From contig CADCKW010000001.1 in the NCBI GenBank assembly GCA_902802115.1, forward strand, positions 72,409 to 136,408: a DNA stretch of 64,000 nt. Reading direction: 5' to 3'. The DNA is from an uncultured Pseudomonadota bacterium. Lineage in GTDB: Bacteria; Pseudomonadota; Alphaproteobacteria; Rs-D84. Within the stretch, counting starts at the first letter, position 1. Every line of letters starts with the position of its first letter. This document shows positions 19,254 through 53,649 of the stretch, piece by piece. The translations under genes were made by a program, and so were the position numbers. The notes below the pieces were generated by a model. It was not told the DNA's origin. It saw nothing but the letters and a program-made list of their open reading frames with translations, and searched no databases.

Positions 19254-19391
19254 TTATAAACCGTTGTCAGAGCCTGTTAAATCGATTCCACGGTCTTTGA
19301 ACATTTCAACCAAATTGATAGGCTCCAAATTTTGTTGTTTTACCATCATCGTAGCCTTTGCCAAATTCAGTTTCTTTTTTACGTCTGTCAT
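19254..19391 (-). CDS. Small hypothetical protein (45 aa)
   Basis: It encodes MTDVKKKLNLAKATMMVKQQNLEPINLVEMFKDRGIDLTGSDNGL. An AAGAGG RBS is 7 nt upstream. It is below the ORF-track size cutoff. Confidence 0.3.
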   Translation of the reverse strand: MTDVKKKLNLAKATMMVKQQNLEPINLVEMFKDRGIDLTGSDNGL

Positions 19392-19480: not shown

Positions 19481-20986
19481 TTACATTCCGCAATCCAGAC
19501 ATTCTTCCCCTATTTCCTGGATTTCTGCGTCACCATCGGTCACAACAGCGATTGGGACAACCTTGCCTGGTTCGGTGTAATGCGTTTCTTTGACAACGCG
19601 CACACGACGATTTTGGGCATTTGGCACACCATCAGCCGTTGGAACTTTCAAATCTTCTTCACCTGCGGAAACCGCGACAATTTGACTTGCAGGGATTCCG
19701 TATTGAATCAGCATTTTCTGGACAGCCTCGGCTCTGCGACCACCCAATGCATAATTATAACTGTTGCTGCCAGATGTATCCGTATGACCAACCACAGAAA
19801 CCTTTATATTTTTATTTGTCTGGGTTGCGGTCGCCAATTCACGAATCAACGCATCATATTCAGGTTTGATAATGGCTTTGTTAAAGTCAAAATGAACTTC
19901 GAATATCTCTTCCATTACATGTTGTGTTGGTTCCAATGGAATCTGTTGGACTTTAATAACAGCCTTTTCATCGTTTGGTTTCAATGCGTCCAAACGGTCA
20001 TTGATGGCCTTGATTTCTGCACGCATAGCCATCATCATATTGATAAACTCGTCACGGGTGACAACTTCTTCGCCTAATGTTGGATCTTGGTTACATGGGC
20101 ATGTTTCCACCGCCGGTTCATTATCTGGAACATTTATTACAACAGGACGACCTGTATTGCAGTCACATTTTGACCCATTACTTGAATTCACCGCGACAGT
20201 ATTACCACTGTTGGAAACATGTTTATCGCCACCATAGATATTTTGGTTAAACACCATCGGCGCACCATTACCCACAGGCACAGTTTGCACCAAATTTGCC
20301 GGAACATTAACATTATTTACAATCACGATACCGTCACGTGGATACGATGCCCCACCCACAGTTTTCAAAGAACGTGTATCTGGATAAAATTCTTTCTTAT
20401 TAATTTCGATTGTTGCAGGTTTTTCCGCCGCGCGTTTTGCAACCTTGCAACCACCACTTTTACAATTACGCAACACGTCCATTGCCGCGATAAAACGGTC
20501 ATGACATTGATGCGCAGTTTCCTCCTGGGCGGTTGATTCCGCAGACAACCAACAATCAAATTTCGCCTGTGCCTCGGCTGCAACATCTGGACGATTTTCT
20601 GTGGCATCATTTTTGAATTCTTCAATCATGTCATTATATGCCATTTGCAACATTTCAGCAGTTGCCTCGTCATCGATTGGCCAATTTCCCACAGTTTCCG
20701 GGAACGGTGTTTCCCCTGAAAAAGCCGTCACAGCCTTTTGCGCAAACAATTCACCCATTTCCGGATAACCCGATGTCCGCGCATTATAAATTGCATAAGA
20801 CCGATAATTCATCGCCAACTGATTCAAAAAAGAATCCTGATGTGGTGCCGAATAAACATCTAAACCTTCGACATAATCAACTGTTGGGGTTGATACATCT
20901 TCATAACGATTATCGGTTCCTGCGCATGCCGTCAAAGCCGACACCAAAGCCAAACCAAAAACACGTGAAAATATTTTGTTTGCCAT
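19481..20986 (-). CDS. OmpA-family lipoprotein (peptidoglycan-associated)
   Basis: 501 aa with a lipobox (LTAC). The C-terminal OmpA-like domain is …VVGHTDTSGSNSYNYALGGRRAEAV…NRRVRVV. There are Cys-rich segments in the middle. Confidence 0.75.
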   Translation of the reverse strand: MANKIFSRVFGLALVSALTACAGTDNRYEDVSTPTVDYVEGLDVYSAPHQDSFLNQLAMNYRSYAIYNARTSGYPEMGELFAQKAVTAFSGETPFPETVGNWPIDDEATAEMLQMAYNDMIEEFKNDATENRPDVAAEAQAKFDCWLSAESTAQEETAHQCHDRFIAAMDVLRNCKSGGCKVAKRAAEKPATIEINKKEFYPDTRSLKTVGGASYPRDGIVIVNNVNVPANLVQTVPVGNGAPMVFNQNIYGGDKHVSNSGNTVAVNSSNGSKCDCNTGRPVVINVPDNEPAVETCPCNQDPTLGEEVVTRDEFINMMMAMRAEIKAINDRLDALKPNDEKAVIKVQQIPLEPTQHVMEEIFEVHFDFNKAIIKPEYDALIRELATATQTNKNIKVSVVGHTDTSGSNSYNYALGGRRAEAVQKMLIQYGIPASQIVAVSAGEEDLKVPTADGVPNAQNRRVRVVKETHYTEPGKVVPIAVVTDGDAEIQEIGEECLDCGM

Positions 20987-21082
20987 AATTCCTTCCTTTG
21001 TATTTAATCCCTTGTATTATACTATTTTTTTGTCAGTCAGTAAAGCAGAAAAAAACAACGAAAATAATTAGCAATTACTATA

Positions 21083-21330
21083 TACAAAACGTACATAAAC
21101 GAGCCACCAACAGTTCGTTCATCGGGTGATTTTTAGATAAATAATGGTGCAGATGCGCAGTTGATGGCGAGTGCCGTGTACAAAACGTACATAAACGAGC
21201 CATCAACAGTTCGTTCAACGAAAGATTTTTAGATAAATAATGGTGCAGATGCGAAGATAAAAACGAGCGTAATGTACAAGTGCTACATGAGCGAGTTTTT
21301 ATCAAGCAGATGTGCCATTATTTATCTAAA
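21083..21330. repeat. Array of structured hairpin repeats (family R, 1 truncated + 2 full units)
   Basis: The units are ggtgcagatgcgcag-STEM-gagtg.cgtgtacaa.gctacataaacgag-STEM'-…. The stem sequences differ between units but stay complementary (ttgatggc/gccatcaa; gataaaaac/gtttttatc). The outer arm tttttagataaataatgg/ccattatttatctaaaaa overlaps the stop of gene 21318..22142. Confidence 0.7.
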
Positions 21331-22142
21331 AATTGGGTGACTGTGGGTGCAAGTGACCCTATCCCAGATAACCCACCACCACTGGTGAGCCCCCCAACCG
21401 CCTGCATAATACTGCCGGTGTTGGTTTTTTGACCCGCATTGGAAATGGTTGTGGTTAAAAATGAAGCATATGCCTCGCGATTGCGTTTAGTAATATTTTC
21501 AGGCGAACACTTTTCCATTTTTTCCATCATTTTACCATACATGGTTGCCTCGTCATTGGTATAATCCACAACGGTAAAATCAATTGCACCAAAAACTTTA
21601 TATATATTTGATTTATATTTTTGTTTGGACGACGCACATGTTGGCATGCCATCGGCACAATAATATCCATACGAAGCCTTTGGATAACCTTCCCAAATCA
21701 TACCCTTATCAGTCTCACCAGACTGACCAAAAAATTCAGTACAAGGTTCAATAGAATTTGTTGTCGCAACCACCTTTAAATCATCAGCATAGGTATTATT
21801 ACCATCACACCTTTGTCCAGACGTCACAGTTTTAAACATACTATCTGCGGTCACCGCACCGGCCTTGGCATATTCTTTGACCATATTATTAACCCAGTTA
21901 ATTTCTGTGGCCGTCGGCACACACTCTGCCGCCAATTCTTTTTGTTGCTTGGTCAAAGCCGACACATTGGACACCAATCCAATAACGCCTGGCAACAATG
22001 ACCCCGATGTTATACTTTCCAAACCCGATGTTTCTTGTTTTTTAACATTTGATGCTTTTTTGACCTGAAAATCAGCCGCATTGGCAACAACACCACACAT
22101 GCAGACAATCAATCCCATTAAAAAAGAAATTTTTTTTCTCAT
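21318..22142 (-). CDS. Secreted hypothetical protein
   Basis: 274 aa with a signal peptide (…VVANA|ADF). It contains several Cys residues. Its last codons and stop lie within the repeat arm. Confidence 0.5.
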   Translation of the reverse strand: MRKKISFLMGLIVCMCGVVANAADFQVKKASNVKKQETSGLESITSGSLLPGVIGLVSNVSALTKQQKELAAECVPTATEINWVNNMVKEYAKAGAVTADSMFKTVTSGQRCDGNNTYADDLKVVATTNSIEPCTEFFGQSGETDKGMIWEGYPKASYGYYCADGMPTCASSKQKYKSNIYKVFGAIDFTVVDYTNDEATMYGKMMEKMEKCSPENITKRNREAYASFLTTTISNAGQKTNTGSIMQAVGGLTSGGGLSGIGSLAPTVTQFLDK

Positions 22143-36780: not shown

Positions 36781-36877
36781 AAAAAATAACGAGACAGATG
36801 CGCAGTTGTTTATGAGTGCGGTGTAGAACTGCTACATAAACGAATAAACAACAAGCAGATGCCCTTTATTTTTTTAA
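36781..36877. repeat. Structured hairpin repeat (family R), solo unit
   Basis: The unit is aaaaataacgagacagatgcgcag-ttgtttat-gagtgcggtgtagaactgctacataaacgaa-taaacaa-caagcagatgccctttattttt. It has the conserved core and covarying inner and outer stems. Confidence 0.7.
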
Positions 36878-36912
36878 ATTATGCCCCAATCAATCGATTG
36901 GGGCAATAACTT

Positions 36913-51048: not shown

Positions 51049-51151
51049 TTAAATTCTCCTTTCCCGTCAATTATATCACATTTTACCCCAATAAAAAAGC
51101 CATAATTACATTTGAATTAAAAAGTAAAAAATAAAATATAAATATGTAAAT

Positions 51152-51443
51152 AGAACGAGGTAGATACGCAGTTATTTGCAAGTGCAGTGTACAAGCGCTA
51201 CATAAACGAGCAAATAACAAGCAAACATGCCGCCAACCCAACAGATATTAGAACGGTGTAGATGCGCAGTTGTTTGTGAGTGAAGTGTACAAATGCTACA
51301 TGAACGAACAAACAACAAGCAGATATGCCACAACAAATAAAAACAGATTTTATAACGGTGTAGATGCGACGATTCCGGCGAACGTAGTGTACAAGAGCTA
51401 CATGAGTGAGCCGGAATCAAGCAGATATGCCGTTATAAAATCT
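51152..51443. repeat. Array of three structured hairpin repeats (family R)
   Basis: Three tandem units of about 90 bp. Each has the conserved boxes gtagatgcgcag / gagtg.agtgtacaa.gctacatgaacga / caagcagatatgcc. The stems between them vary and compensate: ttatttgc/gcaaataa, ttgtttgt/acaaacaa, gattccggc/gccggaatc. In unit 3 the outer arm is ttttataacgg/ccgttataaaa. The ftsK stop codon lies in the last arm. Confidence 0.75.
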
Positions 51444-53649
51444 GGCGTTTGTTGTTGGCATCAGGCGCACTCACAATCCCTTCTTGTTCCATACGTTCCA
51501 TAAATCCAGCCGCCTTGTTATAACCAATTCCTAATCTTCGTTGCAGATATGAAATTGTTGGCTTTTTATCGCGCAAAACAATTTCTTTGGCCTGGGAATA
51601 CAAATCACCGTCCTTGGCGGCTTTAACATCTGCCGCCGATGGTGCCGCCCCAGACGCAATATCATCACCAGAATCCGTCACACCCGATGCATATTCTGGT
51701 TCGCCTTGGGAACGCAAGAAATCACCAATACGCGTTAATTCTTTATCCGAAATAAATGCACCATGAATACGTACCAAATCATGTCCAGAATCACTGTATA
51801 ACATATCACCACATGCCAATAACTGTTCTGCACCCTTTTCGCCCAATGCCGTCATTGAATCGATTACACTACGCGCATGGAAAGAAACACGTATTGGGAA
51901 ATTGGCTTTGATAACACCCGTAATGGTATTTGCGTCTGGACGCTGGGTTGCCATAATCAAATGAATACCGGCGGCACGCGCCTTTTGTGCAATTCGTTGA
52001 ACGCACATTTCAACCTCTTTACGCGCCACAGCCATCAAATCTGCGACCTCATCAATTACTATTACAATATATGGCATATCAGACAAATCGACTTCTTGGG
52101 TTTCAAACAACAATTCACCTGTTTCCTCGTCTGTGCCAATGGCAACCTGTTGAGTAATTTTCTCACCGGCCTCGCGCTTGGCGGCAACAATTTCATTATA
52201 ACTTTGAATATTACGCGCATTAACAACCTGCAACTGTTTATAACGTTCTTCCATTTCACGCACCGCCCATTTCAATGCGTTCACAGCCGCCGTCGCATCT
52301 AATTTCACAATTGGCGTAATTAAATGTGGGATATCGTCCCAAAATCCAAAATCAACACCTTTTGGGTCAATAATAATCAACTTACATTTATCAGGTGTAA
52401 AATGATACACAATAGAAGTAATTATCGATTGAACAAATACAGATTTTCCAGTTCCCGTATGTCCAGAAACCAACATATGCGGCATTTTTGCCAAATCATA
52501 ATATAATGGATTTCCACCAATATCGACTCCCAACGCCAACGGTATTTTAAAAGGCGAATTTACAAACATATCATTTTCTATTAGACTACGATATTTAACC
52601 GTTTGTGGTTTTAAATTTGCCATTTCCACACCAATCAATTGCGTTGATGGAATTGGCGCAATACGCAAAGTTTTTGTCGCCATGGCGCGCGTCATATCTT
52701 TGACAGTCTTGGTCACATCAATCAATTTTGTTCCGCTTTCCGGCAAAAATTCATACAGTGTCACAATTGGTCCTGGGCGAATACCCGTCACTTTGCCATA
52801 CACATTGTATTCTGCGAAATGTGTTTCCATAGATTCTGCTTGGGCCCTTAATTCAGGTGTCACAACCCCTTTGCCAAACACAGATTCTTCCAAAAATTCA
52901 GGGTCAGGCAATTCATATTCGCTATTTTCAACCACAACTTTTTTACGAACCGCACGTGTTTTCTTTTGCTTAGGTTTCTCTTCTTCCTCTGCTTCTTCGG
53001 TTTCTTCTTCTGCGTCTTCTTCCTCTTCATCTTCTTCACGCACAGGCAAAATATGAAATGCAGACAGCACCCAACGAATTGCGCCCCAAACCAAATGCGC
53101 AACACTAACCACATAATCCCATTTTATATGCAATAAAATTCCAGCCATCAACCCAAATCCAGCCAACGAAAGCAAACCAATAATAATCTGCCAATTACCC
53201 ATAAACGCACCAAAATCATTTGATGCAATCGCGCCAAACATACCACCAAACGAAGACCCTGGAAACACCATACCAAACCCAGCGCACCCCAAACATAACG
53301 CAATAAATCCACGCAATATATTATATTCAGGCGTTGCCATTTCATCGCGTCCGCCCATGTAATAAAAACCTGCACGCATTAAACACAAAAATAAAAATAT
53401 CATTGGAATAAAACCAAACACATATCGCATAAAACCAACGACCCACCCAAATATACCATGATTACCATATGTGCTGGAAACCGCCCAACCGTCCAGATAA
53501 GAATTATAAAACAAGGCCGATAAAATCGCCAATACACCAACGACAAACATCACCCCGCCCAACAACCGCCAAGCCAGGTCTTTCAACGCCCCAGACAATC
53601 TTTCTGGTAAAAATCTAGATTTTCCTTCCATGCCCCGATTATACCACAA
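51433..53649 (-). CDS. ftsK: DNA translocase FtsK
   Basis: 738 aa with N-terminal TM segments and an acidic E-rich linker. The motor domain has Walker A GHTGTGKS, and there is a C-terminal gamma winged-helix domain. Confidence 0.9.
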   Translation of the reverse strand: MWYNRGMEGKSRFLPERLSGALKDLAWRLLGGVMFVVGVLAILSALFYNSYLDGWAVSSTYGNHGIFGWVVGFMRYVFGFIPMIFLFLCLMRAGFYYMGGRDEMATPEYNILRGFIALCLGCAGFGMVFPGSSFGGMFGAIASNDFGAFMGNWQIIIGLLSLAGFGLMAGILLHIKWDYVVSVAHLVWGAIRWVLSAFHILPVREEDEEEEDAEEETEEAEEEEKPKQKKTRAVRKKVVVENSEYELPDPEFLEESVFGKGVVTPELRAQAESMETHFAEYNVYGKVTGIRPGPIVTLYEFLPESGTKLIDVTKTVKDMTRAMATKTLRIAPIPSTQLIGVEMANLKPQTVKYRSLIENDMFVNSPFKIPLALGVDIGGNPLYYDLAKMPHMLVSGHTGTGKSVFVQSIITSIVYHFTPDKCKLIIIDPKGVDFGFWDDIPHLITPIVKLDATAAVNALKWAVREMEERYKQLQVVNARNIQSYNEIVAAKREAGEKITQQVAIGTDEETGELLFETQEVDLSDMPYIVIVIDEVADLMAVARKEVEMCVQRIAQKARAAGIHLIMATQRPDANTITGVIKANFPIRVSFHARSVIDSMTALGEKGAEQLLACGDMLYSDSGHDLVRIHGAFISDKELTRIGDFLRSQGEPEYASGVTDSGDDIASGAAPSAADVKAAKDGDLYSQAKEIVLRDKKPTISYLQRRLGIGYNKAAGFMERMEQEGIVSAPDANNKRQIL

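Follow-up and report, generated by a model that had tools for sequence, protein, structure and literature searches.

When a palindromic repeat overlaps the end of a gene, which of the two has supplied the sequence that they share? The question arises in a 64,000-nt stretch of DNA from an uncultured alphaproteobacterium (contig CADCKW010000001.1, positions 72,409 to 136,408; hereafter the window), where an array of hairpin repeats, locus A, covers the stop codon of a gene for a secreted protein. The first-pass annotation of this locus left two alternatives standing: either the element had inserted into the 3′-end of the gene and now supplies its terminus, or about 20 bp of flanking gene sequence had been joined to the repeat unit.

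The array between a gene end and a promoter

Locus A (window 21083-21333) consists of one truncated and two full hairpin-repeat units with a period of 96, as had been read from the sequence at the outset, although the window and most of its relatives are metagenome assemblies and the exact unit number is provisional. Tandem Repeats Finder gives a period of 96, 2.1 copies and 85% matches for 21083-21279, and a repeat search places two 96-nt copies in register. The stems first described, and an arm present twice in direct and once in inverted orientation across the codons for ...QFLDK*, were recovered by the repeat search and by translation. The 19-nt arm is direct at 21129 and 21225 and inverted at 21315-21333; the inverted copy had been placed 3 nt too far to the left, at 21312-21330. 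Inverted arms of 28 nt are found at 21129-21156 and 21225-21252 versus 21306-21333. The core of a unit measures approximately 78 nt, and a full unit with its outer stem approximately 105 nt. The core motif GTGTACAANNGCTACATRARCGA occurs six times in the window, where 0.01 occurrences are expected, and a covariance model run without filters over the whole window reveals exactly three loci, all on the plus strand. The features are as follows.

21016..21044, minus strand: promoter-like site of the downstream OmpA-family gene, kept in filled and empty orthologous loci
21078..21305, minus strand: 75-aa ORF from translation of the array, spurious
21083..21128, plus strand: truncated unit A0, with the right apex half, right inner-stem arm GCCACCAA and spacer CAGTTCGTTCATCGGGTG only
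21129..21147, plus strand: L-arm copy 1, ATTTTTAGATAAATAATGG, inverted duplicate of the last 5 codons and stop of gene 21318..22142
21148..21224, plus strand: unit A1, with TGCAGATGCGCAG, inner stem and apex core (21176-21198)
21160-21168/21199-21207, plus strand: inner stem of unit A1, GTTGATGGC/GCCATCAAC
21225..21243, plus strand: L-arm copy 2, same sequence as copy 1; pairs with 21315-21333, closing the outer stem of A2
21244..21314, plus strand: core of unit A2, with TGCAGATGCGAA, inner stem, apex (21272-21294), then AAGCAGATGTG
21256-21264/21295-21303, plus strand: inner stem of unit A2, GATAAAAAC/GTTTTTATC
21315..21333, minus strand: R arm CCATTATTTATCTAAAAAT, native gene 3′-end (Q F L D K stop) plus 3 nt
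21318-21320, minus strand: stop of gene 21318..22142, read as the reverse complement
21318..22142, minus strand: anchoring gene, 274-aa signal-peptide protein with the conserved C-terminus ...APTVTQFLDK
36795..36870, plus strand: locus C, one unit only, downstream of the ThrRS gene (thrS) and its terminator-like hairpin
51140..51444, plus strand: locus B, three units B1-B3, with the native FtsK stop (...KRQIL*) under the R arm

The gene-proximal unit A2 begins at the TA of the TAA stop codon of the anchoring gene and, both arms included, has a folding energy of -49.1 kcal/mol (z = -10.8). The right side of unit A1 reads CAGTTCGTTCAACGAAAG instead of the canonical CAAGCAGATRTGCC, so that pairing is possible for its inner hairpin only. 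The truncated unit A0 is also present in independent assemblies (L128/L129). Since the promoter-like site at 21016..21044 is conserved, the array sits between the stop codon and the promoter of the OmpA-family gene. The 75-aa ORF, which the first-pass annotation had set aside as an artefact, is still best regarded as one, because it has no Pfam match and is internally repetitive, no gene is called in the array spacer at any orthologous locus, and the array is variable or absent there.

Gene ends, arms and unit numbers

The C-termini of the anchoring protein were compared among more than 40 homologues, and all end in ...(A/V)(T/I/L)QF(L/F)DK, down to approximately 40% identity. The synteny LptB, LptC, anchoring gene, OmpA-family gene, P-type ATPase holds in all orthologous loci that were fetched. 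Among them are element-free syntenic orthologues (L121/L122, L125 and L126; 57-59% identity), which still end QF[LF]DK*; at the empty sites in L121, L125 and L126 this ending is followed by approximately 20 nt leading to the conserved OmpA-gene promoter. Native gene sequence thus makes up the arm at 21315-21333, which the orthologue comparison proposed at the outset identifies as gene-derived rather than element-derived. The two direct arm copies are shown by the alignments to be inverted duplicates of the gene end, with the gene as donor. Of the two original alternatives, the first, in which the element supplies the terminus of the gene, is refuted by these repeat-free orthologues; the second gains support, with the refinement that the copied flank is inverted and makes up the hairpin's outer stem. 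Insertion into a palindrome that was already in place was also considered and rejected, as none of the three empty sites has a stop-centred palindrome; that of L121 has a single off-centre 8-bp palindrome.

The far arm follows the gene even at synonymous positions. In the window it is a perfect 19-nt complement of the gene end A TTT TTA GAT AAA TAA TGG, and in L123 (75% identity) a perfect complement of A TTC TTG GAT AAA TAA TG, such that TTT TTA is matched by TAAAAA in the former and TTC TTG by CAAGAA in the latter. L124 carries what amounts to a fossil arm, in which a TTGG-type sequence is retained although the gene reads TTTTAG.

The anchoring protein itself has no Pfam domain. Its gene is always found between lptC and the OmpA-family gene, a position which suggests an uncharacterised family of envelope proteins; the protein has a Gly/Ser-rich tail, ...GGLTSGGGLSGIGSLAPTVTQFLDK. 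Between the OmpA-family gene and the P-type ATPase gene lies a 45-aa ORF (19254..19391, minus strand) with no Pfam match. A gene of 45-48 aa is called at the same position in L118, L119, L121 and L122, and the ORF probably encodes a real small protein.

The array at locus A differs between strains, comprising 1, 1.5 or 2.5 units, plus chimeric half-units. Orthologous sites are filled in the window, L118, L120, L123, L124 and L128-131 and empty in L121, L125 and L126. The more closely related arrays are these, with the identity of the anchoring protein to that of the window.

L127, 99%: TTGATGGC-type half beside the gene; contig ends within the array
L128/L129, 96%: A2, with arm and truncated A0, lacking one 96-bp repeat relative to the window
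L130/L131, 92%: single intact A2, far arm decayed
L118, 87%: TTGATGGC-type half beside the gene; chimeric, with GATAAAAAC on one side and GCCATCAA on the other

Unit number is, thus, polymorphic among strains whose proteins are 92-99% identical. Insertion at the end of this gene has also happened more than once, since three registers are found there: that of the window and, in other lineages, that of L150/L155, where the element begins a few nucleotides past the same secreted-protein stop, ATAAATAA of the gene being part of the arm; and that of L136, where it begins approximately 18 nt downstream of the gene end. The polymorphism and the three registers agree with the earlier description of the element as mobile or duplicative.

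Locus B repeats the arrangement beside ftsK. Each spacer with its left arm is an inverted copy of up to approximately 30 nt of the ftsK 3′-end, and these copies diverge increasingly with distance from ftsK (GCCAACAACAAACGCCAGATTTTATAACGG vs GCCACAACAAATAAAAACAGATTTTATAACGG). FtsK ends ...KR[HQ]IL* in more than 40 homologues of this clade, and its R arm is, hence, native as at locus A. Like the 75-aa ORF, an 82-aa ORF (51172..51420, minus strand) spanning the array is an artefact of translation. The FtsK proteins of the gut/rumen clade (P0051-P0170) end exactly at ...KR[HQ]IL, whereas those of other Alphaproteobacteria run 10-20 residues beyond the equivalent GKREIL. Unit number varies here too: in the relative L109 the ftsK locus has two units, the first a B1-left/B3-right chimera, and on other metagenomic contigs it has one unit (L139) or at least three (L146). 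Chimeric units are the expected product of deletion between the conserved apices of adjacent units. Across the two loci the comparison shows that unit number changes between strains and that half-units have been exchanged at the conserved apex. The inner-stem type ATTCCGGC is shared by unit B3, L100 and L141, and the recurrence of inner-stem types across genomes indicates sublineages of the element.

Locus C is the only locus in the window where the element lies away from a stop codon; a GC-rich hairpin, gccccaatcaatcgattggggc (36882-36905), separates the unit from the thrS stop, and the same arrangement is found in L082 and L149.

The repeat family, its orientation and its possible origin

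An exact-pattern scan of one genome per species returned at least 117 stretches, and among the matches listed approximately 55 are clearly the same element. The carriers are alphaproteobacterial MAGs, including rumen and gut RGIG, RUG and UBA bins, Rhizomicrobium, Micavibrio-like organisms and Kiloniella. All copies have the apex GAGYG-NNR-TGTAS-AANNN-STACA-T-RARYGA, in a hairpin totalling approximately 105 nt. Each unit is composed of this conserved apical module and conserved purine-rich internal loops, split by complementary stems of free sequence; every copy has at least one hypervariable stem, yet it is always paired. In the gut clade 91.6% of cells pair, as against 73% when shuffled and at most 43% with slid partners, and 22 of the 33 pairs have changes on both sides (132 doubly-changed cells). 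Covarying pairs in the two soil clades number 11/37 and 27/33. Two copies in MAG RBC027 (L053 6038-6169 and L115 6689-6820) carry a further small hairpin to either side of the apex (ggttgctagcgacagcgtagcaac and gttcatagcgacagcgtatgaac), and on the predicted fold this variant would be branched rather than linear.

The ends of the element form a conserved imperfect terminal inverted repeat, AYGGYRYAGATGCG / CAAGCAGATRTGCCRT, with ends ATAAYGG / CCRTTAT. Gut-clade termini read TA|AYGG...CCRT|TA and many soil copies TA[GAGC...GCTC]TA or TA[GGCGCG...CGCGCC]TA, while several soil copies have no TA on the left. Since the outermost pair taken from the minimum free energy fold proved too noisy, the arms were measured by banded arm extension; beyond ...GATRTGCC the gut-clade arm extends for 18-22 nt irrespective of where the stop codon lies.

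Searches of the window and 15 related loci against Rfam 15 at the gathering threshold revealed tRNAs and rRNAs only, and permissive settings added one chance-level match (ES003, E = 0.9). No copies were found in IMG/VR or among PLSDB plasmids, no element halves split around a gene were found in 155 loci, and neither a transposase nor a parent element for the family was found in those loci, IMG/VR or PLSDB. A literature search by keyword and motif sequence found no published description. The family is apparently uncatalogued, large and spread across the Alphaproteobacteria. That the apex is conserved throughout whole orders, and in situ among orthologues of 66-99% identity, suggests a function beyond selfish spread.

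Copies were oriented with GAGCGA reading 5′-3′. The right-hand ORF is then almost always on the opposite strand, and the left neighbour shows no preferred orientation or distance. At approximately 27 of the 43 loci having such a convergent ORF its stop codon lies 34-38 nt from the core, which puts it at the base of the hairpin; these stops are TAG (18), TAA (8) and TGA (1), with TAG predominating in the soil clades. In the gut clade the stop is at the hairpin base (arm position ~17-21), 7 nt in, or intermediate. At loci A and B it is 7 nt in, inside the conserved CCRTTAT, and the outer 12-15 bp of the stem are coding. The pattern of termini fits insertion at the TA of a TAA or TAG stop, whereby the first base of the element would restore the stop codon; as TA is absent on one side in some soil copies, a TA target-site duplication is not proven.

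In 52 of 58 instances, among them all 21 of the gut clade, GAGCGA is on the C-rich strand. The window has a GC skew of approximately -0.2 and its genes are mostly on the minus strand. Since genes lie mostly on the leading strand, orientation by replication is confounded with orientation by gene. On the plus strand the skew is approximately 0 to -0.1 over the first 16 kb, where genes are on the plus strand, and approximately -0.2 over 16000-64000, where they are on the minus strand; the sign does not change across the window, which shows no evident origin or terminus.

Every conserved non-Watson-Crick position is a tandem G.A or a G.U on the GAGCGA strand, the one antisense to the anchored gene; among them are GAGCGA, which flanks the apex on both sides, and GCAGATGC, which lies lower down, again on both. 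This strand folds 6.6 kcal/mol better on average, and in 53 of 59 instances, an asymmetry attributable to the tandem G.A loops; the G.U counts of the two strands (145 vs 161) are uninformative as to which is folded. At locus A the only promoter-like site found is on the minus strand, downstream of the array, no sigma-70-like promoter was found on the plus strand at locus A or B, and 20900-21450 contains no classical intrinsic terminator (GC-rich stem and T run); soil-clade copies likewise have no T run. The upstream gene is the only evident source of transcription, in the sense opposite to the GAGCGA strand. The location of the G.A and G.U positions on the antisense strand fits poorly with a function in the sense 3′-UTR.

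The array is probably made up of a non-autonomous REP/MITE-like hairpin repeat that lands on stop codons, has its outer stem templated by the flank, recombines within arrays and forms a hairpin in the 3′-UTR. The core element would transpose to the TA dinucleotides of TAA and TAG stops, its first base restoring the stop codon. The outer stem may then arise, and stay perfect, through intrastrand template switching (quasipalindrome correction) in the course of replication, when the nascent strand would fold on the hairpin and copy the gene end; with synthesis running from gene to element, the gene end would be the natural template. There is documentation both of template-switch mutations by which inverted repeats become perfect or longer (PMC7202029, PMC8604942, PMC3820800) and of MITEs of approximately 100-150 bp with TA termini and RNA hairpins (PMC2229807). 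Array length would rise and fall through slippage, or through unequal recombination between the 19-nt arms and between the conserved cores. Transcription of the array as the upstream gene's 3′-UTR is predicted to yield a long RNA hairpin, which near the stop codon might be a 3′-end barrier, a block to 3′-exonucleases, or a site for RNase III or other processing. It could also stall ribosomes by analogy with REPs situated no more than 15 nt from a stop, for which such an effect is reported, as cited in PMC12306157 and PMC5082802. The conserved loops are putatively a protein-binding site.

The near-constant arm length is not predicted by sporadic template switching, and an insertion mechanism or selection is possible. 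An unlikely but more radical proposal is that the element itself writes a fixed-length inverted copy of its flank at the stop codon, an "inverted target-site duplication" reaching approximately 13-15 nt beyond the TA, perhaps through snap-back priming from the element's 3′-end on the terminal codons of the gene. This would explain why arm length is constant whatever the stop position, why arms match the local synonymous codons, why every unit of an array possesses a gene-end copy of its own, and why orientation is strict. The class-wide apex, one strand of which has three tandem G.A motifs, would then be the putative recognition site of a dedicated protein, and the family an unrecognised kind of mobile or host-installed element.

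A rather less likely alternative is a host-selected cis-regulatory RNA, in which the hairpin would sequester the stop and last codons and thereby tune termination, stalling or RNase III cleavage, the complementarity of the arms being held by ordinary compensatory selection. The apex and loop motifs are indeed kept at the orthologous locus where proteins are only 66-75% identical and the stems diverge with compensation, the stop codon is at the hairpin base across clades, and the ribosome stalling just mentioned for REPs within 15 nt of a stop (again as cited in PMC12306157 and PMC5082802) would be a precedent. Yet chimeric units with non-complementary stems persist (L118, and the first unit, U1, of L109), three fairly close orthologues lack the element, the anchored genes are unrelated in function (FtsK, ThrRS, secreted protein), and the purine-rich non-canonical pairs favour the antisense strand. 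A further alternative is a single-stranded DNA element mobilised or recognised by an enzyme of HUH type, such as those of IS200/IS605 or RAYT, inserting 3′ of an (A/T)TAR-like target and oriented by the direction of replication. Strict strand asymmetry, the position of the GAGCGA strand on the C-rich (lagging-sequence) strand in the 52/58 instances, the lack of any clear direct target duplication, and the stability of tandem G.A pairs in DNA hairpins all speak for such an element; we nevertheless think it quite unlikely, for gene anchoring explains the orientation equally well, genes being mostly leading-strand, the G.A-rich strand is the leading-strand template and not the exposed lagging-strand template, and no Y1/HUH gene was identified within the loci examined.

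Small antisense RNA genes, transcribed from the plus strand and convergent with the secreted-protein gene, would account for the better folding of that strand (by 6.6 kcal/mol on average, 53/59), for the conserved G.U pairs at the base of the apical stem, and for a -10-like TATAAY that many gut-clade copies have in their conserved left end. They are very unlikely given that loci A and B have no sigma-70-like plus-strand promoter, left flanks are locus-specific, soil-clade copies are without the -10-like motif, and G.U counts are equal overall on the two strands (145 vs 161). Scarcely credible, finally, is insertion into the coding region with the element supplying the last residues and the stop. 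The conserved end of the element, ATAAYGG, does contain TAA, stops are found in every frame of the arm, and in the soil clades, where the hairpin-base stop is mostly TAG, a stop supplied by the element is possible; but QFLDK* and KR[HQ]IL* are native in element-free or distant homologues, and at loci A and B the empty orthologous sites refute it.

Relation to known systems

The stop-landing, flank-templated hairpin repeat that we prefer is best filed among the bacterial palindromic interspersed repeats, where its gene-templated outer stem and its anchoring to stop codons are unusual. It is outside every family tested, namely Rfam, REP/REPIN, CIR (by description), attC and terminators; CRISPR, type III toxin-antitoxin RNA arrays and attC were rejected on anatomy. 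If confirmed, it is an abundant structured element, with approximately one locus per 20 kb in the window, common to poorly studied alphaproteobacterial lineages (gut and rumen MAGs, Rhizomicrobium, Micavibrio-like) and absent from catalogues of RNA families and repeats. It gives rise to spurious ORF calls and breaks short-read assemblies. It also provides a natural example of a palindrome recruiting coding sequence as an arm, the non-coding arm following synonymous changes, and could be used in the study of template switching and of the effects of stop-adjacent hairpins on mRNA fate.

Several MITE features are present, namely a short non-coding unit, terminal inverted repeats, and both filled and empty sites. 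Correia/NEMIS of Neisseria and RUP of Streptococcus pneumoniae are likewise non-coding units of approximately 100-150 bp with terminal inverted repeats, TA termini and long stem-loop transcripts, dense in intergenic regions beside genes and with filled and empty sites between relatives (PMC2229807). The present element has no sequence similarity to them. Its copies share only loops and apex, with two hypervariable stems; its outer stem can be templated from the neighbouring gene; it is strictly oriented, stop-anchored and conserved class-wide rather than genus-wide; and no parent IS has been identified for it. REP/BIME and REPIN sequences are also abundant 3′-UTR palindromes, often in arrays and vertically persistent, and they can sit a few nucleotides from stop codons and affect translation or mRNA decay (PMC12306157, PMC5082802). 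REPs are, however, 20-40 nt long with a conserved stem sequence, and REPINs are two inverted REPs with a variable middle, whereas here the middle is conserved and the stems vary, the GTAG-type definition of REPs does not apply, and no RAYT was found within the loci examined. The CIR/Bru-RS repeats of Caulobacter and Brucella are closer in host and size, being approximately 110 bp, intergenic, shared between alphaproteobacterial genera and with TA termini; CIR is described (PMC2229807) as two arms and a linker with a conserved GANTC in the terminal loop. By that description they differ from the single hairpin with a TGTAS-AANNN-STACA apex seen here, and GANTC is conserved in none of the three clade alignments.

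Integron attC sites are likewise hairpins defined by structure that directly follow or overlap the stop codon of the preceding ORF, are strand-specific, and vary in their stems while pairing is kept. Their conserved parts are the basal R/L boxes, RYYYAAC / GTTRRRY, with a variable apex, whereas in the present element it is the apex that is conserved, and its ends read ATAAYGG / CCRTTAT, in which GTTATAA fails to match GTTRRRY; moreover, the units do not bound cassettes, and the genes to which they are anchored belong to the core set (ftsK, thrS). Rickettsia palindromic elements (RPE) are inserted in frame within ORFs and are translated. By description they differ from the present element, which lies after the stop codon and in which only the native last codons join the stem. 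Quasipalindrome template-switch mutagenesis would explain arm-to-arm copying and palindromes that are perfected or extended (PMC7202029, PMC8604942, PMC3820800), but it is a mutational process and not a family of elements, and by itself it leaves the constant arm length unexplained.

Br-REP1/2 of Bradyrhizobium have a different architecture and different motifs by description (PMC5082802). One inner-stem type, GATTCCGGC/GCCGGAATC, which occurs in unit B3 (51369-51376/51410-51417), L100, L141, L143 and L154, nevertheless resembles the Br-REP1 core CCGGAATCTCGAGATTCCGG (PMC5082802), a likeness that may be coincidence or may reflect a shared module. The same stem type creates GANTC sites.
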